Origin: Nitrospiraceae bacterium
GTDB lineage: Bacteria; Nitrospirota; Nitrospiria; Nitrospirales; Nitrospiraceae
Direction of reading: 5' to 3'
Assembly: GCA_035623075.1 (NCBI GenBank)
Contig: DASPUC010000034.1
Span: 3,095-67,094 of the forward strand
DNA length: 64,000 bases
In this document: piece by piece, positions 24,668-37,656 of the stretch
Position numbering within the stretch: the stretch's first letter is position 1
Layout of the letters: each line of letters starts with the position of its first letter
Program-made: the position numbers and the translations under genes
Notes under the pieces: model-generated
Databases searched by the model: none
What the model was told of the DNA's origin: nothing
What the model saw: the letters and a program-made list of their open reading frames with translations, nothing else

Positions 24668-26235
24668 CTCGCTCTCCCTTGAGCCGGTATGGCCGGCTCG
24701 TTGACTTCAGCATAGGCCGCACGTAAGCCTGCCGCTTCCTGTTCCGCGCAAGTGGTTACCTCAGGCGCCCGCTCTCGCACAAATTCCACGAATCGTTCAA
24801 TCTTGATGAGAAAAAAGTCGTAGCACTGCGTAATAGGCCTCGGCTCCCGAAACCAGAAGGCGACAAAGTCCCTGAGAGCAATTCCACGTTGGCGTAAGGC
24901 CTGGCAGCTCTCTGGAAACATGTCCGTGAGCGAGCCACCCCACTGGAGAATTTCATGAGGCAAATAGGACGTACGGTACAGCTCGAGTCCCTCGCATTCA
25001 CATACAGCTCCGTTCCACTGATCCCCTGGTGGAGCGGTATGGTCTGACACGATCTTGGCGTATCGTTCATAGTCGTCGCACAACTGCTGTCGCTCGAACC
25101 GGCTGGTGATAGCGGGTTCATACGTGCCGTAGGGCGATTGCTCTGAGGCGAGGTTCGTCATTGTGCTTCCACCCATCACACCCTGAATGACCGGAGCGAA
25201 CTGCCGTGACACCTGTTCAAATTCGTTGGCGATCAAGTCGATCACCTTGGTGTCGACTTCTAACGCCACCCCCCTCAGACTCGTCAGGTTTCTGTGGCCA
25301 AGCACTTGTCCCAGGATCTCGAACAGGACCGGTGGAATCGGAGCTGCGTGCGCATCGAGCCATTCGGGCGGCTCGGAGCTGATCTCACGCCTATGAAGTG
25401 CTTCATGTGTGGCCAAGCCCGCGATGTGGATTTCCACGACGCGGTCCATCGGGAATTCATCGAGGAATTCCTGGACGAATTGGACCAGGGACATTCGTCG
25501 CCACATTCCTGTGTAGCGATACACCGTCCAGAGATGACCGAGATCCAGCACGAGGCCGCAAGGAGCACGCTCGACGATCAATCGGAAAAATTGTGCGATC
25601 GGAATGGTACCGACGGCGAAGTAGGTCAGTGGCGGCATTTCCAACAAAAACACGGGAGTCGAACCATCAGGTCTGCGACATTGGCTATCGAGCGCAGCCT
25701 GCACAAGAACAATGTTCTGAGCAACGACTTCGGCGCTCGCTGGCGTAAAGAGCGGAGGCAAGTAGGTCCCGAACGAATAGCCTCCCATCTGTTTCGTCGC
25801 GCATTCATGGTTCAGCCACGGGCTCTGGAGGATATTGAGGTGTGTCGCGGCTTCGGCCACTGCCTCATCAAATGTCTGATGGCCTCGGCTTTCTGGTTGA
25901 GTCACCCACAATCCCTCTCCATGATACGAGAGGGCGACGCTCGGTAGATGCTGTCTTATGACCTCCAGCGCGCCCGTCGAGGCTTTAAAAATTTCGAGAT
26001 AACCCGGAGAGAGCTTTCGACTTCCGAGGTGGTCTGTGAGTTCGATCAGGTCAGGAGAATAGACGTCTACTGAGACTCCGAGACCCTGAGGGGAAATCGC
26101 TTGGAGTCGATCCGTAAAGGCTCGCTTGACGTTTCCAGAGACGGTCAAGAATCCACCCTTGTGCTGTGCCAAAAATTGGCCTAGTCTAGTCGCCAAACCC
26201 GTTGTTTGACAAGGGAAGACCTCGATCCGGGTCAA
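24664..26235 (-). CDS. Divergent DUF692 (MbnB/TglH-like, xylose-isomerase-like TIM barrel) protein fused to an uncharacterised ~180 aa C-terminal domain
   Basis: These blocks align by eye to the DUF692 consensus: SPWLNHEC, FLLEMPPLTYF, PCGLVLDLGHLW, RVVEIHIAGL and WLDAHAAPIPP. TTG start. ATGA overlap with dus at 24664-24667. Confidence 0.6.
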   Translation of the reverse strand: MTRIEVFPCQTTGLATRLGQFLAQHKGGFLTVSGNVKRAFTDRLQAISPQGLGVSVDVYSPDLIELTDHLGSRKLSPGYLEIFKASTGALEVIRQHLPSVALSYHGEGLWVTQPESRGHQTFDEAVAEAATHLNILQSPWLNHECATKQMGGYSFGTYLPPLFTPASAEVVAQNIVLVQAALDSQCRRPDGSTPVFLLEMPPLTYFAVGTIPIAQFFRLIVERAPCGLVLDLGHLWTVYRYTGMWRRMSLVQFVQEFLDEFPMDRVVEIHIAGLATHEALHRREISSEPPEWLDAHAAPIPPVLFEILGQVLGHRNLTSLRGVALEVDTKVIDLIANEFEQVSRQFAPVIQGVMGGSTMTNLASEQSPYGTYEPAITSRFERQQLCDDYERYAKIVSDHTAPPGDQWNGAVCECEGLELYRTSYLPHEILQWGGSLTDMFPESCQALRQRGIALRDFVAFWFREPRPITQCYDFFLIKIERFVEFVRERAPEVTTCAEQEAAGLRAAYAEVNEPAIPAQGRAR

Positions 26236-26324
26236 CAGTTCCTGTCTGCTATAATTGGCTTACGCCGACGGGGGCGAAACCCTCACGAACCTGGGAAAAC
26301 CGCGACAGGAGCGGTTTCGAACCC

Positions 26325-27083
26325 ATGTCAACAGCCGATGAGTATCCCCCTCGGACCACGAATCCAATACCGACTGTGGTTGCCCATATGATGACACCAG
26401 GGGTCGTACAGATTCCGGGCGATGTCTCCGTGAGTGAGGCGGCGCTCATGCTCGAACGCGAACAGACTCCCTGCCTGCTGGTGAAAGACACTGAGACGCT
26501 GTTCGGACTCATGACTCCAACCGACATCGTCAAGAAAGTGGTCGCGCAGGGACTGGAACCTCATAATATCGAGGCTCGCACGATCATGACTCAGCCAGTC
26601 CAGTTCATCGAATATGACCGTGCGTTGGAAGAGGCCACCGCCCTCATGACGTCGACGGGAGCCTCTCACTTGATCGTCACAAAAGACAACCAGCCGGTCG
26701 GTGTACTCAGCGCACGCGATCTCATGCTGACTCCACCGCCGCGACGCACGCGAATTCCCGCGATGCTCAGAATCTCACAGAGCGGAATCGCGGCTGGGAC
26801 GACTCCTTACAGCGCCACCATTATCCAACTCGGTCACCTCGGGGCGCTGCTCGAGTTAAACACGGCTCTGGATGCGGGAACAAATATTCTTCTTGTCTTT
26901 TCGTTGCCCGGTCAGCACACACCGCTGACGCTTCAAGGAACGGTGCTTGTCTGTAAGGAAAACCGTTCGGGCAACGCCTCGAATGCCGTCGACATCCAAT
27001 TTAAAAACGTAGCGACGACGGACCAGACACGTATCAAAGCCTGGGTATTGCAAACACTTCCGCTTCCCCAAGATCGCTCCTAA
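26325..27083 (+). CDS. CBS-pair protein with a C-terminal PilZ-like beta-barrel
   Basis: Two CBS repeats (MTPGVVQIPGDVSVSEAALML.., IMTQPVQFIEYDRALEEATALM..). The C-terminus resembles PilZ, but the RxxxR and DxSxxG motifs are not intact. The start could be 26389. Confidence 0.65.
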   Translation: MSTADEYPPRTTNPIPTVVAHMMTPGVVQIPGDVSVSEAALMLEREQTPCLLVKDTETLFGLMTPTDIVKKVVAQGLEPHNIEARTIMTQPVQFIEYDRALEEATALMTSTGASHLIVTKDNQPVGVLSARDLMLTPPPRRTRIPAMLRISQSGIAAGTTPYSATIIQLGHLGALLELNTALDAGTNILLVFSLPGQHTPLTLQGTVLVCKENRSGNASNAVDIQFKNVATTDQTRIKAWVLQTLPLPQDRS

Positions 27084-30047: not shown

Positions 30048-31217
30048 TCAGCTGTTCTGGTCGCTGGCTAACTTGCGACAGAGTTGTCGTGCGCGCTCCT
30101 CTGCGAGGCTCACCGAATCGACAACGAACGTCACATGGCCCATCTTTCGTCGAGATCGCATGATCCGCTTTCCGTACAGATGAAGAAATGTTCCGGGCGT
30201 GTTGAGCAGAGCTCCACAGCTCGGGTCATGTATCGTCGTTGCATCGGTTCCAAGGAGATTCACCATCGCGGCAGCTTTCAGGAGACGAGCTTCTCCAAGC
30301 GGGAGGCTGCAGAGCGCGCGTACTTGTTGCTCAAACTGAGACACGCTGCACGCATCGAGGGTATAATGCCCCGAGTTGTGGGGTCGAGGAGCAATTTCGT
30401 TGATCAGCAATTCTCCGGTGGATAGATAAAACAGTTCAAGACAGAAGACGCCGACACCCTGAAGCGCCTCCACAACCTCCCGCGCGAGCTTTGCAGCACG
30501 TGCGGCAATCTCCGCGGGGACGCGAGCGGGCACGAGCGTCGTCCGTAGAATACCGACCTCATGTTCGTTCTCGGCCAGGGGATAGATTCGGGTCTGTCCG
30601 TCCATCCCGCGGACGACGAGAATCGAGAGTTCTCGGTCAAACGTTACGAGCCGTTCAACAATCCACCTGATTCCGGGACGAACCGACTCGGACAAGACTC
30701 GTTCGAGTTGCTCAACGTCAGACTCACCGGTGATTCGCCACTGACCCTTTCCATCGTAGCCCGCCGTCGCCGTTTTCACGAGCGCAGGATGCCCGACCTT
30801 TCCCACGACAGCCGAAAGCTGGTCCGGCTTCAACAAGGGAAGAAACGGCACGACGGGAAATCCCCGGGCGGCTAAAAACCCTTTCTGTTCGAGACGATCT
30901 TGAATGGTGTGAAGAATGGCGCTCGACGGCCGAACCGGCTTGCTTACTTCCAGCGTCCTGCACAGACTGACCGGAACGTTTTCCCACTCATAGGTCACGG
31001 CGCTGACCAAGGCGAGGAACTCACCGAGCGTGGGTTGGTCGGAAAAGGGAACGGGGAAGGATCGCTGGGCAAGCCGGTGAGCTGGCGCATCTGGATCAGG
31101 ATCCCAGACCGCCACCTGATAACCCATTCGCTGGGCAGCCGTCGTGAACATGGCGCCCAACTGTCCGCCGCCCAGGACGCCAAGCACGTTCCCGGGCTCA
31201 ATAACCGCGAATGTCAC
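30048..31217 (-). CDS. purK: N5-carboxyaminoimidazole ribonucleotide synthase
   Basis: ATP-grasp PurK pattern ([11 protein letters not shown].., HNSGHYT). Overlaps purE by 4 nt. Confidence 0.9.
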
Positions 31218-31792
31218 GACCGGCGACTCGGATGACGGGACGTGGTGCCCCCGGCCACCATGCCTTTGGCTTCAGCAGAATGGAGAACCCCCTCGGTCTG
31301 CTTTTTTCGAAACGCTTTTACGCGTGTTTCAATTTCAGGATACCGACCGGCAAGAATCTGAGCCGCGAGCAGCCCTGCATTCTCTGCGCCCCCGATCGCC
31401 ACCGTTGCCACTGGTATCCCGCGTGGCATCTGGACGATGGAAAGCAACGAATCGAGTCCACGGAGATTTTCTGTCGGAATCGGGATACCGATGACGGGAA
31501 GGTGTGTTTTTGCGGCGAGCATGCCGGGGAGATGGGCCGCACCGCCAGCTCCGGCGATTATCACTTCGATACCTCGTGCCGGGGCTTGTTCGGCATAGGC
31601 AAACAGGCGGTCCGGGGTCCGATGCGCCGAGACCACCATCAGTTCACTGGCAATCCCAAGTTCTGTGAGGACCGCAACTGCCTTTTCGAGGATTGGGAAA
31701 TCGGACTTGCTTCCTCCAAGGATTCCGACCAGCGGGCGGGCTCCTTTTTGTCCTTGTTGCCGAGATCGGCTGCCACCACCGGCAAGGGCCAT
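31214..31792 (-). CDS. purE: N5-carboxyaminoimidazole ribonucleotide mutase
   Basis: [16 protein letters not shown].., SAHRTPD.., [10 protein letters not shown].. are canonical PurE blocks. Confidence 0.9.
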
Positions 31793-31939
31793 ACGAGAAA
31801 ATCCTCTGGTTCCTCCGAGATCTACAACTATCGCAGGGGCTTCACCATAACGATATTCCCATTGACGGTCAAGATCATGCTAGACCTCTCAAACAGCGCG
31901 TTCTTGCTCAAGAATTGACCCATTGAGCTGCTTTCCTCT

Positions 31940-33430
31940 ATGATAAACGGGCGACTGACTCGCTCGTTCCTTCCTTCATCTGAAGAGGACGTGGTGGCAC
32001 GCCTGACCGAAGGCCTCAGAAACAAAGTCCGGTCTCTCGTCAAACAGGACACCGGCCTCGACCAGATCGCCATCGACGACCTCGCGACTTCCAACAAACT
32101 CCAAGCCTGGGAAGCGGTTGATATCCCTGAACGCTTGCGCTTTTCCTCACGGCTCGCCATCAAGTTGGTCCTCCTTTTTATATTGATCATCGCCTTTGTT
32201 CCCTGGACCCAGACGATCACGGTGACAGGCCAACTGTCTGCTTACACCCCGTTCGAACGACCCCAGGACATCGAAGCGCAAATTACCGGACGGATAAAGA
32301 AGTGGCACATCTTCGAGGGCGTGCGGGTCAAGCAAGGCGATCTGATTCTGGAGATGGACGATTACGACCCCGACTTCATGTCCCCCGACTTGCTCTCGTT
32401 ACTCGAGCAGCGGCGGAAGGCTCTGGCTGATACTCGGAAGGCCGCCTTAGGTCGCGCCGAGCAACTCGACAAACGCATCAGCGAGATGCAGAACCTCGTA
32501 AAGGCCGCAGTGCCTTCGGCACAGGCTCGCGTCGTCGAGGCAGAAAACAGGGTTCGCGAAGCCAACCAGAAGGTAGAAGCGGCGAAAATTGCGGTCACGA
32601 CGGCAGAGTTGAACGTAGATCGCCACAAACAACTGGCTGAACAGGGGTTGGTTTCTCAGCGTGAACTCGAGTTGACGATCCAAGCGGCCATTGCGACTAA
32701 AGCAGACTTGACCGGAGCGCAGGCCAGTCTCAAAGCGGCGGAACAGAGCATGAAGGCGTTGAGTTTCGGTCGAGAGCAGGTCAGCGCCGAAGTGCTGCAA
32801 CGTTTGCTCGATGCGGAAGCTGCCCGCGACGCGTCGGTGGCTGAGGCGGCCAAGGCCGCCGATCAGTTGGCGGATGTGTCGTTACGGCTCTCCAACGCAG
32901 AGCAACGCCGTCTGGCCAGCCGCGTCTTGGCTCCGATCGACGGCACCGTCGTCCGCATGGCGCAGGCAGGCGCTGGAGAAACAGTCCGACAAGGAGATAA
33001 GATCGTTCGTATTTCACCGGCCAGCACCGATAAGGCCATTGAAATGATGGCCGACGGGTTGGACGCGCCATTGCTCAACGTTGGCCGAAAAGTCCGCATT
33101 CTCTTCTACGGGATTCCCGCCATTCCCCTTCCTGCATGGCCTGAGATTATGGCCGGTACCTTCGGAGGCGTGATCAAAGTCATCGACCAAGTTGACGACG
33201 GGAAGGGCAACTTCCGATTCTGGGTGGTCCCTGATCCGGACGATCGCCCGTGGCCTCCACAGGAGCACATTCGCCAAGGCACGAAGGCCATGGGATGGGT
33301 CATTCTGAATCGTGTCCCTCTCTGGTATGAGCTGTGGCGACGGTTCAATCTCTTTCCGCCTGATTATCAAGAACGGCCGCCGAGCTTAATCGACACCCTC
33401 CTGCCGAAAGCAGGACGGGGTGCGAAGTAA
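31940..33430 (+). CDS. HlyD-family periplasmic adaptor (type I secretion / ABC export)
   Basis: One N-terminal TM, a lipoyl-like hairpin (ITGRIKKWHIFEGVRVKQGDLILEMD), a long coiled coil, and VLAPIDGTVV. Confidence 0.82.
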   Translation: MINGRLTRSFLPSSEEDVVARLTEGLRNKVRSLVKQDTGLDQIAIDDLATSNKLQAWEAVDIPERLRFSSRLAIKLVLLFILIIAFVPWTQTITVTGQLSAYTPFERPQDIEAQITGRIKKWHIFEGVRVKQGDLILEMDDYDPDFMSPDLLSLLEQRRKALADTRKAALGRAEQLDKRISEMQNLVKAAVPSAQARVVEAENRVREANQKVEAAKIAVTTAELNVDRHKQLAEQGLVSQRELELTIQAAIATKADLTGAQASLKAAEQSMKALSFGREQVSAEVLQRLLDAEAARDASVAEAAKAADQLADVSLRLSNAEQRRLASRVLAPIDGTVVRMAQAGAGETVRQGDKIVRISPASTDKAIEMMADGLDAPLLNVGRKVRILFYGIPAIPLPAWPEIMAGTFGGVIKVIDQVDDGKGNFRFWVVPDPDDRPWPPQEHIRQGTKAMGWVILNRVPLWYELWRRFNLFPPDYQERPPSLIDTLLPKAGRGAK

Positions 33431-33552
33431 GCACGACCCGGCATCCGTCCTTTCATTTCTCATTTCCATCGTCGCCCGACAGTCATCGTGCTTGTGCCGA
33501 CCATAAGCTCGGACAGCATCGGCTTAGTCGCATCATGAAAGGAGCGCACACT

Positions 33553-35040
33553 ATGAATCTCTTTCAATGGTTTTCAGTCGTCGTGCTTGCAGGGACTCTT
33601 GGCCTCTGCCCCGTGTTGACATCTGCCGGGGAGACTACGAAATCAAAAGATCTCCCACCGATCCCGCTTAGCCTGGATGAGGTCCAAGCCTGGATCGATC
33701 GGTCCCACCCTCTTCTGAAGGGAGCGGGGACCGAGAAGGTCATGGCGCGGGGGAAAATGCTCAAGGCGTTGGGCGCCTTTGAGCCAACCGTGGTCAACGA
33801 CACGGAGGTCGAACGATTTATCTCGAGCTCGAACCCCAACGCAGGCACGCAGACGGTCGGCTTTAACGACACACTGGTCGAAGCCCGTCATCCGTGGGGA
33901 TTTAAGTACAGTGCCGGCGTCCGCGAAGTGATCAATGGTCCGGCCAAGATTCCAGACTTGTCGTTCAACAATAGCAACAATCAGGTGCTGCTCGGTGGAT
34001 CATTCCCCCTCTTGAAAGGCCTCTTGATGAACCCGGAGAACGCCGAACTACAGCGGTCCGAGTTGGCCGATCCACGCGCTGATGTGCGAGTCGCTCAGAC
34101 CAGGCAGGATCTGTTTCTGGCGGCGGCGATACAATTCTGGGACTGGGTCGCGAGCGTAAAACTTGCGGAAGTCCAGCGTAAGGCGCTGGGCGTCGCGGAG
34201 GAGCGCTACAGGCAAGTCGAGGGCCGAGCCAAGGCCGGCGCCGTGGCTCCGCTCGACGTTGTGGAAGCCAACCAAGAAGTCCAGCGACGAAGAGAAATAG
34301 CGATCGCCGCCCAACGAGGTGTCGAACAAGAACAGCTCAAGCTGTCGATGTTTCTGTGGGAGCGCAATGCTCCAGTGACGCCCCCCATAGAGCGAGCCCC
34401 TGAATTTCCCTCGCAAATGTTGATTCCCTCTCCGGACACGATTCAGGCTCATAAACTCCAGGCAAAGGCCGATCGTCCAGAAATCAAAGAGATCGATATT
34501 GAAGCCAAGCTCAACAATATTGATTTGGCGCTGGCGAAAAACAACCTCCTTCCCAGCCTTGATGCCGAGGCGGCACCCGCACGCGCCCCCGAGAAATTTG
34601 TCCTAGGTCTTGGGTACCGGTTTGGAGTCGAACTCAGAATTCCCATTCTGCAACGAAAGAGCCGTGGCGAAGTATTAGAAGCGCAAGGGAAGGCCGACCG
34701 GTTCGTTCTGGTGCAAAAATTCCGTGAACAACAGGTCGTGATCGACGTCGACAACGCTCTATCGGCGATCGAACGGGCCAAAGAACGGGTGGCGGCTGCA
34801 ACCGATTCATTACGATTGGCTAAGACACTGGAGGAAGGTGAGCGGTTCCGTTTCAGCCTGGGCGCCACCAGTGTCTTGTTCGTAAACCTGCGAGAACGCA
34901 ATTCCGTTGACTCTGAAAATCAAGTCATCCGAGCGAAAGCCGACTATCAGAAAGCCCAAGCTCTGTATCAATGGGCCATTGGCGCGTGGGCGAGGAACCT
35001 GCCGTCGGCCATCCCGGTCAGCTACCGCGCGCGCGACTGA
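33553..35040 (+). CDS. TolC-family outer membrane efflux protein
   Basis: Signal peptide and two OEP repeats with coiled-coil segments. AAAGGAG RBS 8 nt before the ATG at 33553; the ORF opens at 33535. Confidence 0.8.
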   Translation: MNLFQWFSVVVLAGTLGLCPVLTSAGETTKSKDLPPIPLSLDEVQAWIDRSHPLLKGAGTEKVMARGKMLKALGAFEPTVVNDTEVERFISSSNPNAGTQTVGFNDTLVEARHPWGFKYSAGVREVINGPAKIPDLSFNNSNNQVLLGGSFPLLKGLLMNPENAELQRSELADPRADVRVAQTRQDLFLAAAIQFWDWVASVKLAEVQRKALGVAEERYRQVEGRAKAGAVAPLDVVEANQEVQRRREIAIAAQRGVEQEQLKLSMFLWERNAPVTPPIERAPEFPSQMLIPSPDTIQAHKLQAKADRPEIKEIDIEAKLNNIDLALAKNNLLPSLDAEAAPARAPEKFVLGLGYRFGVELRIPILQRKSRGEVLEAQGKADRFVLVQKFREQQVVIDVDNALSAIERAKERVAAATDSLRLAKTLEEGERFRFSLGATSVLFVNLRERNSVDSENQVIRAKADYQKAQALYQWAIGAWARNLPSAIPVSYRARD

Positions 35041-35186
35041 GATGGAAGAAGTGGCTTTTTCCGCTGTGTTTTGATAGCGTTAGAGCGATCCCGCTCCTGG
35101 GGAAGCGGTCCGGCTTCTCCGTTCTGAAGCCGAGGACAACCGCGCAGGCCCGCAGAAGGCCGGCGCAAACAAAAAGGCGAACTTCC

Positions 35187-36848
35187 GTGCAGCGTCACGC
35201 GGGCAACCAGCCGAATCTCTTTCAGTCGGTCCTCGGCTACCTCGGCGTCCTTCTGCGCTTGGAACGGCGAGTTCTCACCCTCGTGGTGTCTTATTCGCTT
35301 GCCATCGGTTTGTTCTCCCTCATCGTCCCGTTGACCGTCCAGGAACTTGTCAACACCTTCGCCTTTGCTATTCAGCCCATCACGATCGTGACCCTTGCCG
35401 GTGTCATGGTGGCCGCTCTTTTATTCGTCGGAGCCTTCCGTACGTTGCAGTACTACGCAGTCGAAGTGTTGGAGCGGCGATTCTTTGCCCGCGTCGCGAT
35501 CGGCATGGCGAAACACTTACCGCACATGCAGTTTTTGGGGTTCAAGCCCCGCTATGCCAACTATTTCATGGAAACCGTGTTCATGCAGCGGGCTCTTTCG
35601 GTACTCCTGGTCGATCTCATCAACGTGATCGTCGGTGGCGCCGTCGGGATGACGATCTTGGTGTTCTATCATCCCTATTTCCTCCTCTATAACGCTCTAC
35701 TCCTAGCCGGTTTCAACGTCGTTTTCTTGCTGTCGCGCGGAGGACTCAGAGCCACCATCGACATGTCGCACGCCAAGTACGACACGCTGCATTGGATGCA
35801 GGAAATCTCTTACAACCTGCTTCATTTTAAGGCGACCGACAGTCAAGCCCTGCTGATGCAAAAGACCGACGACTTGGTAAACAAGTACGTCGAAACCCGT
35901 CGCACGAGATTCGGAATCCTGGTTCGCCAATATTTGGGATCGGTCGGCTGGCAAGCGTTCGCCCATAGCGGACTCATTGCGACCGCCGGATGGCTCTTGT
36001 CGATCGGTCAATTGACCTTGGGACAATTGGTCGCGGCCGAGGTTGTTGTCAGCGGACTCCTGGCAAGCTTCGACGAGGTCGTCAAGCGGATGGGGCACAT
36101 CTACTACTTTCTCACCGGATTAACCGAACTCGATTTTCTCTTGTCGCTCCCGAAGGATCAAGAGTCGGCTAGGCTCTCTGTGCCACTTCCGGACCCGACG
36201 ATTCACGGTATTCGCGTGACTTGCAAAGATCTGACAGTGGAACATCCCGACATGCCGCCGATCTTCCAGAACTTCGATCTCGAAGTAACCCCAGGAGAAA
36301 AAATCGGGATCTATGCGAGCACCACGGCGGCGAAGACAGGGCTCGCACGGGTTCTGGCAGGCTTGGAAAACCCAACCAGTGGTGTCATCCGGTACAACGG
36401 CGTTGATCTCCGCCATCTTGATCTCAATTCGATCAATCGGTGCCGGGGGTTCATGATCGACTCCCAACTCTCCTTGTTCGAGGGCACGATTGAGGATAAT
36501 ATCGTGTTGGGACGCTCCTATGTCCCCTACAATGATGTGCGGTGGGCCTTACACATCACCGAGCTTGAGGAGGACGTCGACGCGCTTCCCCAGGGGTTGA
36601 AGACTCATATTCGGGCTCCTGGTAGGATCCTCGCTCCGACGCATATCATGCGCATCCTCTTGTCACGGGCCATCCTGGCGCGGCCACAGATTCTCATTTT
36701 CGACGGAATCCTGCACAACCTGCATCCTGCCATGCGCGAAACGATTCTGCGTCGGCTCTGTTCCAAGGACGAACCCTGGTCCGTTATCTTCGTGTCGAAC
36801 GATCCGAATTTGACGCCTCACGTTGATCGCCGATTGATCCTCGAGTGA
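35187..36848 (+). CDS. ABC exporter homolog (6-TM domain plus nucleotide-binding domain) with degenerate ATPase motifs
   Basis: The TM domain resembles HlyB/PrtD-type exporters. In the NBD: Walker A reads GIYASTTAAKTG (expected GxxGxGKST), signature LAPTH (LSGGQ), Walker B ILIFDG (hhhhDE), H-loop position N. The ATG at 34971 would overlap tolC by 70 nt, so the in-frame GTG at 35187 is used; the start is uncertain. Confidence 0.75.
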   Translation: MQRHAGNQPNLFQSVLGYLGVLLRLERRVLTLVVSYSLAIGLFSLIVPLTVQELVNTFAFAIQPITIVTLAGVMVAALLFVGAFRTLQYYAVEVLERRFFARVAIGMAKHLPHMQFLGFKPRYANYFMETVFMQRALSVLLVDLINVIVGGAVGMTILVFYHPYFLLYNALLLAGFNVVFLLSRGGLRATIDMSHAKYDTLHWMQEISYNLLHFKATDSQALLMQKTDDLVNKYVETRRTRFGILVRQYLGSVGWQAFAHSGLIATAGWLLSIGQLTLGQLVAAEVVVSGLLASFDEVVKRMGHIYYFLTGLTELDFLLSLPKDQESARLSVPLPDPTIHGIRVTCKDLTVEHPDMPPIFQNFDLEVTPGEKIGIYASTTAAKTGLARVLAGLENPTSGVIRYNGVDLRHLDLNSINRCRGFMIDSQLSLFEGTIEDNIVLGRSYVPYNDVRWALHITELEEDVDALPQGLKTHIRAPGRILAPTHIMRILLSRAILARPQILIFDGILHNLHPAMRETILRRLCSKDEPWSVIFVSNDPNLTPHVDRRLILE

Positions 36849-36861
36849 GCGGAGGTTGCAC

Positions 36862-37656
36862 GTGGGCCTGTCTTCATACATTCGATCGTATCGGCCAAGC
36901 GGTGCACGGATCGTCATCAGCCTGCTAATCGCCGCTCTGGGCTGGCTCAGCGGTCAAGCCCTCAGTCAAGTCGATCAAGATATGCGGATCATGTATACGG
37001 AGTATACGCTGGGTGCGGCAGACTTGGCCCACATTTCGGCTGACGTGATCCGCTATCGCAACACCATCATCCGCGCCTTAGAGGCGGATAACAAGAAGGA
37101 CTTCGAGCGGATTACGGAATCCCTGCCTGTCCAGCGTGCGAAAATTCAGCATGCCGTCGACCGCTATGCAGCAGCAGGATTGCGCGTGTCCCGAAGCGGA
37201 CGAAGCGAGCCCGAAGATATTGAAGCGGTACGCAGGAGTTTGGATCAGTACTTCTCCGTTGCCAGCAGGACCATTGATCTTCTGACGCAAGTATGGAATG
37301 CCCCGTTGCAACCGGATCGCGAGGCACTGCGGCGTAAAGCCGAAGAACACGCCTCTGACAATGGCGGTCCAAAAATGATTCAAGTCAGCTTGGCATTGGA
37401 CCGACTGCTTGATACCGTAGCCGATGTCGCCAAAGATATGCGGGACGAAGGGACCAAGACGATTCAAAAGACGAGCGTTCTGGTCATCGGAGGAAGCTTC
37501 TTCATCGCCATGTTGAATCTCTTCCTTGCTGTGCCGCGGAGGCGGGATCGTGATCGAGATGATACGGAGGTCCACCCCATGATCGAACCTCGGGATGTTC
37601 AGGTATCACTCCCTATTGGCAACGACCGGCCCAATCCCGTCTTGCGAACGGAATGA
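36862..37656 (+). CDS. Membrane protein with a periplasmic four-helix-bundle (4HB_MCP-like) domain and no signalling output domain
   Basis: TM, ~190 aa helical region resembling MCP ligand-binding 4HB (MRIMYTEYTLGAADLAHISADVIRYRN..), second TM, short tail. GGAGG RBS 6 nt before the GTG at 36862. Confidence 0.6.
   Translation: MGLSSYIRSYRPSGARIVISLLIAALGWLSGQALSQVDQDMRIMYTEYTLGAADLAHISADVIRYRNTIIRALEADNKKDFERITESLPVQRAKIQHAVDRYAAAGLRVSRSGRSEPEDIEAVRRSLDQYFSVASRTIDLLTQVWNAPLQPDREALRRKAEEHASDNGGPKMIQVSLALDRLLDTVADVAKDMRDEGTKTIQKTSVLVIGGSFFIAMLNLFLAVPRRRDRDRDDTEVHPMIEPRDVQVSLPIGNDRPNPVLRTE

Follow-up and report, generated by a model that had tools for sequence, protein, structure and literature searches.

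A HlyD-TolC-type operon of Nitrospiraceae whose only ABC protein appears to have lost every ATPase motif

Alternating access powered by ATP is the defining feature of ATP-binding cassette (ABC) exporters, and textbook accounts treat type I secretion as strictly dependent on ATP. In the HlyB-HlyD-TolC system of Escherichia coli (PDB 7SGR, 8DCK), an ABC-exporter-fold protein with canonical ATPase motifs and a C39-like domain supports ATP-dependent secretion together with a HlyD-type adaptor and a TolC-type channel. Here, we analyzed a locus of the same layout in a 64,000-nucleotide stretch of a Nitrospiraceae bacterium genome (GenBank assembly GCA_035623075.1, contig DASPUC010000034.1; the whole stretch is referred to as the window, and coordinates are given within it). 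A four-gene operon on the plus strand (31940-37656) encodes a membrane fusion protein (MFP), an outer-membrane factor (OMF), an ABC-fold protein and a small four-helix-bundle (4HB) protein. The ABC-fold protein is predicted to be a conserved pseudo-ATPase, in which the fold of the nucleotide-binding domain (NBD) and its link to the membrane domain are kept while canonical ATP binding and hydrolysis are lost, and the operon most likely encodes a tripartite conduit that operates without ATP hydrolysis at its own cassette.

Erosion of ABC motifs with retention of the fold is well described, as heterodimeric exporters with one degenerate site are common (TM287/288, TmrAB and CydDC; PMC7756269). 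In those systems degeneration affects only one of the two composite sites and the gene next door encodes a consensus partner, whereas here both halves of both sites appear from the sequence to be lost and no consensus partner was found. Other systems work without a live ATPase. SbmA couples an ABC-like membrane domain to the proton gradient and lacks a cassette altogether (PMC13316013). SbmA/BacA (SLiPT) provides a functional analogy only for NBD-less and NBD-dead forms: SbmA is a peptide importer outside any MFP/OMF assembly, whereas the protein described here keeps a full, dead NBD and has no SbmA_BacA Pfam match. EmrAB-TolC and AcrAB-TolC are described, in the accessible portion of a review of tripartite systems (PMC8277102), as MFP-OMF pumps driven by the proton-motive force, in which the inner-membrane part is not an ATPase; their inner-membrane components have the major facilitator superfamily or resistance-nodulation-division fold, as opposed to the ABC-exporter fold here. 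An ATPase-dead ABC protein in an MFP-OMF system was found neither by full-text searches nor in that portion of the review. The Nitrospirae SecA_DEAD/HlyD/M50 modules (PMC4452313) are a different module, without an ABC protein.

The genes of the operon and the two domains of the ABC-fold protein are as follows, with residue numbers referring to the 553-aa protein read from GTG 35187.

31940..33430, plus strand: MFP, a HlyD-type periplasmic adaptor (longest open reading frame, from ATG 31940; likely true start GTG 31991/31994)
33535..35040, plus strand: OMF of the TolC family, with signal peptide (PF02321 OEP, 118.3 bits, two repeats)
35187..36848, plus strand: ABC-fold protein, 553 aa, probable start GTG 35187
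35187..36176, plus strand: membrane domain of the ABC-fold protein, residues 1-330, six long transmembrane (TM) helices, type-I ABC-exporter fold
36177..36848, plus strand: degenerate NBD of the ABC-fold protein, residues 331-553 and stop codon (PF00005, 36.9 bits)
36862..37656, plus strand: small inner-membrane 4HB protein (PF12729 4HB_MCP_1, 40.7 bits)

We set the positions of the ATPase motifs by phmmer alignment to solved ABC exporters together with family alignments, which identified the following replacements.

36315..36338, plus strand: former Walker A, A377-S-T-T-A-A-K-T384, with the glycines of GxxGxGK[ST] replaced by A, T and A
36630..36644, plus strand: former signature, L482-A-P-T-H486, in place of LSGGQ
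36690..36725, plus strand: Walker B, I502-L-I-F-D-G507, then the D-loop region ILHNLH, with the catalytic Glu replaced by Gly507
36798..36803, plus strand: H-loop position Asn538, with His replaced by Asn, then clade-invariant Asp539

The D-loop reads HNLH as against SALD, and the A-loop aromatic position is occupied by His353, such that Walker A, signature, catalytic Glu, H-loop, D-loop and A-loop all depart from what is expected of an ABC NBD. Lys383 and Thr384 of Walker A are retained, as is Asp506 of Walker B, which is invariant across 78 family members. The Q-loop Gln (Q427) is also present, albeit variable within the clade. The NBD fold is still recognized by PF00005 (36.9 bits against a cut-off of 25), whereas the 35 NBDs of this genome that match more strongly score about 80-135 bits. 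A first-pass annotation, made from the letters of the window, had proposed a complete tripartite-exporter layout whose single ABC protein is degenerate at every catalytic position. That proposal is supported: the loss of the three Walker A glycines (ASTTAAKT), the LAPTH signature, the ILIFDG Walker B and the H-loop Asn were all reproduced by the phmmer and family alignments, and its reading of a retained Q-loop Gln was borne out. Canonical motifs elsewhere in the protein were ruled out, as the alignments to PDB exporters and to the family fix every motif position where it had been read.

We then considered how these positions vary within the clade, based on entropy across 32 Nitrospirota and Nitrospinota sequences. 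The A-loop (2.6 bits) and the P-loop (1.78 bits over 11 residues, 376-386) were above the NBD mean of 1.31, and the Walker B/D-loop (1.1 bits) and H-loop (0.96 bits) segments were below it. The P-loop Lys is an Arg in 10 of the 32 members, and the adjoining Thr is His, Met or Tyr in many. Gly507, at the catalytic-Glu position, and Asp539 are invariant in all 32, and the D-loop residue His510 is nearly so. Nearly invariant as well are Asn210 and Lys215, which in the structural model fall in the segment connecting TM4 and TM5, the expected site of a coupling helix. From this pattern we infer that nucleotide binding is no longer selected, and that selection still acts on the fold, on the former dimer interface and on the connection to the membrane domain.

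Of 28 sampled genomes from the same family, 25 carry the gene, with two to four paralogous copies being common. Sequence identity among orthologs is 78-94%, and no genome examined has an interrupted or shortened frame. Median dN/dS across 12 orthologs was 0.091 for residues 1-330 and 0.092 for residues 331-553; with dS at approximately 1.6, near saturation, these values are rough, though far below 1. Because purifying selection on the NBD equals that on the membrane domain, the NBD probably does something.

Structural prediction is consistent with an intact protein. The AlphaFold model, built with 78 family sequences, has a pLDDT of 87.2 (about 85-93 over the NBD), and its top Foldseek match is ATP-bound HlyB in the HlyB/D complex (8dck, TM-score 0.89), followed by TmrAB, PCAT1, ComA and PrtD. 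Because this confident model superposes on all five, the protein is predicted to adopt the type-I ABC-exporter fold in full, around an active site that is dead. In the model, a helix begins three residues ahead of the P-loop Lys and shortens the loop. Conservation is highest in the membrane domain, along the helices of the translocation pathway and at the periplasmic ends of TM3/4 and TM5/6. Residues invariant in the family include, at the start of TM6, L276, G279, Q280, L281, V282 and A283, and E285 is nearly invariant.

A whole-genome protein search recovered no evident partner. The sole full-length match was the ABC-fold protein itself, and no paralog resembling its membrane domain was found in the genome. 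All other matches cover the cassette only, at no more than 30% identity (23-28% for the four full-length exporters), so that a search for an intact paralog returned only cassette-level matches. Where the gene occurs as tandem pairs (genomes G059, G152 and G065), both copies are degenerate at all motifs, and all other paralogs examined are likewise degenerate. No second ABC gene or substrate-gene candidate occurs in the operon, as the first-pass annotation had noted, or in its short intergenic gaps (104-147 bp).

In two species of a sister lineage (G088, and the Nitrospirales metagenome-assembled chromosome L053), the MFP and OMF genes are followed by a 339-aa gene that encodes only a membrane domain. 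The two NBD-less genes end at the same point, just after TM6, and are 81% identical, with a dN/dS of 0.27; no NBD remnant was detected beside them by tblastn of the flanks. The presence of NBD-less operons in two species implies that the cassette can be lost while the rest of the operon stays. Downstream of the truncated gene at one of these loci (G088, L028 9124-12095) are genes for two large multi-helix membrane proteins, which by eye resemble proton-conducting subunits of the NuoL/DabB type.

An exhaustive profile-free search extended the family to 1191 representatives at E <1e-30. Among the matches listed, alignments were full length at 30-36% identity and 270-340 bits, far above any curated family. 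Walker A, catalytic Glu and H-loop His occur together in only 21 of 143 full-length representatives, and LSGGQ in only three. We compared 80 loci from Nitrospirota, Nitrospinota, Melainabacteria, Acidobacteriota, Planctomycetota, Myxococcota, Bdellovibrionota, Armatimonadota and Chlorobiota. The ABC, MFP and OMF genes are adjacent in approximately 60 of them, from nine or more phyla, and about 10 more pair the ABC gene with one of the other two. The gene travels with its own MFP or OMF, and without a second ABC gene, in approximately 70 of the 80 loci. In Nitrospirota and Nitrospinota the genes run MFP-OMF-ABC, and the ABC gene comes first (ABC-MFP-OMF) in nearly all other phyla.

A family tree rooted on the genome's own canonical exporters separated three groups. 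Members from Melainabacteria, Armatimonadota and Blastocatellia have near-canonical sites (GxSGxGKST, LSRGQ, DE, His). Members from Planctomycetota, Myxococcota, Bdellovibrionota and Acidobacteriota usually keep Walker A, and most have lost the Glu, the His or both. The Nitrospirota and Nitrospinota sequences are fully degenerate, on a long stem (1.72 substitutions per site, SH-aLRT 100). Judged by these sequences, the protein described here represents the degenerate end of a large multi-phylum ABC-MFP-OMF family whose motifs range from near-canonical to absent. Many longer relatives bear an N-terminal domain of about 175 aa that has no conserved Cys or His column. A profile search of this domain against PDB sequences gave no match, and its structural model matches the peptidase domains of PCAT1 and ComA and the C39-like domain of HlyB. 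Because this domain has a C39-like fold, the family is predicted to descend from HlyB/PCAT-type secretion ABC proteins, with the Nitrospirota form having lost both the C39-like domain and the ATPase. Regulators of the ArsR/SmtB winged-helix type, sometimes two, adjoin the operon in members from Melainabacteria, Blastocatellia and Bdellovibrionota (loci L052, L056, L061, L067, L070, L072, L077, L079, L081, L091, L094 and L095), a hint that the operons of those clades may serve inducible export of a metal(loid) or small molecule.

Against the curated type I secretion and peptidase-containing exporter families, the protein scores far below every cut-off. Scores (with cut-offs) were 100.3 (725.6) bits for TIGR01846 HlyB, 105.2 (510.2) for TIGR01842 PrtD, 119.7 (693.1) for TIGR03375 LssB, 138.6 (853.3) for TIGR03796 and 119.0 (709.4) for TIGR03797, all below threshold. 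The best-scoring of these families are LssB and the PCAT/NHLP exporters (PCAT1 and ComA; TIGR03796/TIGR03797), and PCAT1 and ComA are also among the top fold matches. As compared with PCAT/NHLP systems, the protein has no peptidase domain, double-glycine precursor gene, second ABC gene (there is no ABC1/ABC2 pair) or live ATPase. HlyB is the best structural match, and the longer relatives carry a C39-like domain as HlyB does, but the Nitrospiraceae protein has neither that domain nor the canonical motifs. The genomic context is that of a type I secretion system, with a HlyD-type adaptor and a TolC-type channel encoded directly upstream. In contrast to HlyB-HlyD-TolC, the order here is MFP-OMF-ABC and no RTX-type or other substrate gene lies nearby; no open reading frame in the operon or its gaps was a candidate for a secreted substrate (RTX protein, C-terminal signal protein or leader peptide).

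The fourth gene had been left outside the unit by the first-pass annotation. It proved to be a conserved part of the operon: in the main ortholog group, all Nitrospiraceae loci have it directly after the ABC gene, those with tandem ABC genes among them. Its product comprises a TM helix, a periplasmic four-helix-bundle domain (of the sensor type found in methyl-accepting chemotaxis proteins), a second TM helix and a short tail, with no output domain. Matches to it occur in 55 of 61 family genomes, the weaker ones being full-length chemoreceptors of about 640 aa. All strong matches with compared coordinates lie directly beside the ABC gene (G132, G116, G059, G065, G083 and G136). Since the gene is missing from the sister clades and other phyla among the loci compared, the 4HB protein is a clade-specific accessory, probably recruited from a chemoreceptor sensor domain.

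We consider it more probable than any single alternative, at roughly 60%, that the machine works without hydrolyzing ATP at its own cassette and that the NBD serves as a structural or gating module. This reading rests on four points: both halves of the composite ATP site are gone, the P-loop is drifting, loss of the cassette is tolerated, and no partner is evident. Of the three explanations offered by the first-pass annotation, the evidence favors a non-ATP-energized or scaffold role. A partner encoded elsewhere is disfavored, as the genome has no membrane-domain paralog, tandem copies are both degenerate and NBD-less versions persist. A purely regulatory pseudo-transporter is conceivable.

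The four gene products would form one envelope-spanning, type-I-secretion-like assembly of TolC-type channel, HlyD-type adaptor, ABC-fold dimer and 4HB protein. Its stoichiometry is proposed by homology to HlyB-HlyD-TolC, with the ABC-fold dimer, which in some relatives may pair two dead paralogs, docking to both adaptor and channel. Membrane domain, adaptor and channel would be the functional core. The dead cassette may be kept as a cytoplasmic module for dimerization, gating or partner binding, with Gly507, His510 and Asp539 newly fixed at the old dimer interface. The drive could come from the substrate's own gradient or, by analogy with SbmA, from the proton-motive force acting through the membrane domain.

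Several observations weigh against this interpretation. Lys383, Thr384 and Asp506 remain, so weak or unusual nucleotide binding is possible, and the strength of selection on the NBD means that its role could involve a ligand, although the near-saturated dS makes this comparison a rough one. A conserved membrane-embedded acidic residue typical of proton coupling was also not demonstrated, the only nearly invariant candidate being Glu285, near the periplasmic end of TM6. A more specific proposal is that these systems constitute a fourth energetic class of tripartite exporter, with an ABC-exporter fold driven by the proton-motive force or a substrate gradient, that evolved repeatedly from ATP-driven HlyB/PCAT-type systems. 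The dead cassette would then act as a nucleotide-free clamp, possibly through a His510-Asp539 contact, and the 4HB sensor would gate the machine in Nitrospiraceae. We regard this as tentative, and on present evidence doubtful.

The assembly could alternatively have no transport function, spanning the envelope as a tether, as a scaffold for the TolC channel or as a signaling device with the 4HB protein. Other ABC proteins, namely CFTR and SUR, act as channels or regulators, and the operon offers neither a substrate gene nor an energy source and co-inherits a sensor-type protein without an output domain. However, conservation peaks in the membrane-domain regions noted above, namely the translocation-pathway helices and the periplasmic ends of TM3/4 and TM5/6, and the same trio occurs with near-canonical ATPase sites in Melainabacteria and Blastocatellia, often beside ArsR-type regulators that are typical of efflux operons. 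The 4HB gene, being confined to Nitrospiraceae, cannot explain the family. A non-transport role is therefore unlikely.

It is also quite unlikely that the cassette still binds or slowly hydrolyzes ATP or another nucleotide through non-canonical residues, making the machine an unusual nucleotide-driven or nucleotide-gated exporter. The retained Lys383-Thr384 pair, an Asp506 that is invariant family-wide, strong purifying selection on the NBD and the near-canonical sites of related clades would all fit such a role. However, the Gly ahead of the P-loop Lys is an Ala, the modeled loop is shortened by the early helix, and few of the NBD segments examined vary as much as the P-loop and A-loop, with the Lys and Thr themselves substituted in many clade members. 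With the catalytic Glu, signature, D-loop and H-loop also lost, no half of a composite site is left, and relatives exist that have dispensed with the NBD.

Pairing of the protein with a canonical half-transporter from another locus, which would create one working site as in TM287/288 and TmrAB, is very unlikely here, despite how common exporters with one degenerate site are (PMC7756269) and despite four other full-length type-I exporters in the genome. Those exporters match the cassette only, with nothing in the membrane domain, and second operon copies are equally degenerate. Moreover, a protein without its Walker A and signature sides could contribute at most to a badly crippled site, and in most loci its companions are an MFP and an OMF of its own, with a second ABC gene absent. 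Finally, gene decay, or an apparent motif loss produced by faulty annotation or alignment, has nothing in its favor beyond the missing motifs and can in practice be dismissed (as the first-pass annotation had held in arguing against a frameshifted pseudogene), given full-length open frames in all genomes examined, intact orthologs in 25 of 28 genomes at 78-94% identity, a dN/dS of about 0.09, motif positions fixed by profile and structure alignment, and a confidently modeled NBD.

The remaining features of the locus concern gene starts, regulation and neighbors. Two gene starts of the first-pass annotation probably lie further downstream. The longest ABC reading frame opens at ATG 34971, within the OMF gene; because more than 100 orthologs measure 553-555 aa, GTG 35187 is most likely the start. 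The adaptor frame opens at ATG 31940, yet GTG 31991/31994, preceded by a GAAGAGGA ribosome-binding site, is the probable start, and alignments to ortholog reading frames in related loci begin at query residue 19. The 4HB gene probably starts at GTG 36862, behind GGAGG, with TTG 36856 also possible. The adaptor matches HlyD_3 (PF13437, 37.4 bits against a cut-off of 22.2) and Biotin_lipoyl_2, and with its HlyD and lipoyl domains and N-terminal TM anchor it has the makeup of a HlyD-type MFP; against TIGR01843 (type_I_hlyD) it scores 68 bits, below the cut-off of 208.65, and by score falls outside the type I secretion subfamily. Its orthologs in Nitrospiraceae are 72-87% identical and adjoin the OMF and ABC genes. 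The OMF is syntenic in relatives, and its two OEP repeats place it in the TolC family. By database names, the closest relatives are Nitrospira/Nitrospiraceae.

One weakly supported candidate promoter was located ahead of the operon.

31915..31944, plus strand: promoter-like site, TTGACC, 18 nt, TATGAT (10 of 12 positions match)

This site is compatible with an adaptor start at 31991/31994, in a scan that returned three such sites against 2.0 expected by chance. A weak hairpin with a T-run (35043-35063, plus strand) lies right after the OMF stop codon and ahead of the ABC gene, and could partly uncouple transcription of the ABC and 4HB genes from that of the MFP and OMF genes; terminator-like sites in the region (nine found, 6.5 expected) were not above chance. 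No riboswitch or other RNA element was matched in Rfam at E <=1 between 31500 and 38000. The operon is flanked by a divergent purE/purK pair on one side and a convergent pseudouridine-synthase gene on the other, with polyamine genes also among its neighbors. A 235-aa open reading frame at 31211-31918 (plus strand) was rejected as an operon gene; Pfam returned nothing for it, and purE occupies the opposite strand there (31214-31792, minus). Approximately 5 kb upstream, the gene at 26202-27083 (plus strand) encodes a CBS-pair and PilZ-domain protein that is probably unrelated to the operon.

Unusual arrangements occur elsewhere in Nitrospiraceae. In paralogous systems at L026 7870-12802 and L027 6395-11173 (G104 and G189), three tandem TolC-type OMF genes accompany one MFP gene and one dead ABC gene, an unusual multiplication of the OMF. 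In G092 (L030 3282-8324), an orphan dead-ABC paralog has no adjacent MFP or OMF gene. Downstream of it on the same strand are genes for a family 2 glycosyltransferase (GT2) and then a PMT/ArnT-like GT-C glycosyltransferase, with an AlgE-like porin nearby. A link between orphan paralogs and glycosyltransferases was not upheld, as two other orphan paralogs have no such neighbors, and two apparent upstream reading frames at the G092 locus, Arg/Gly-rich and without Pfam matches, were taken as shadows of opposite-strand genes.

Genes of this kind are at present labeled "ATP-binding cassette domain-containing protein" or "bacteriocin exporter". The locus instead points to a complete HlyB-type machine that is kept by selection across nitrite-oxidizing Nitrospiraceae without a usable ATP site. 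Together with its relatives, it provides a natural series within one homologous machine, from a live motor in distant relatives to a dead motor and, in near relatives, no motor. Such a series would allow one to ask what the cassette does beyond hydrolysis, whether the membrane domain can act as a secondary transporter or channel within a tripartite assembly, and what the abundant environmental Nitrospiraceae export.

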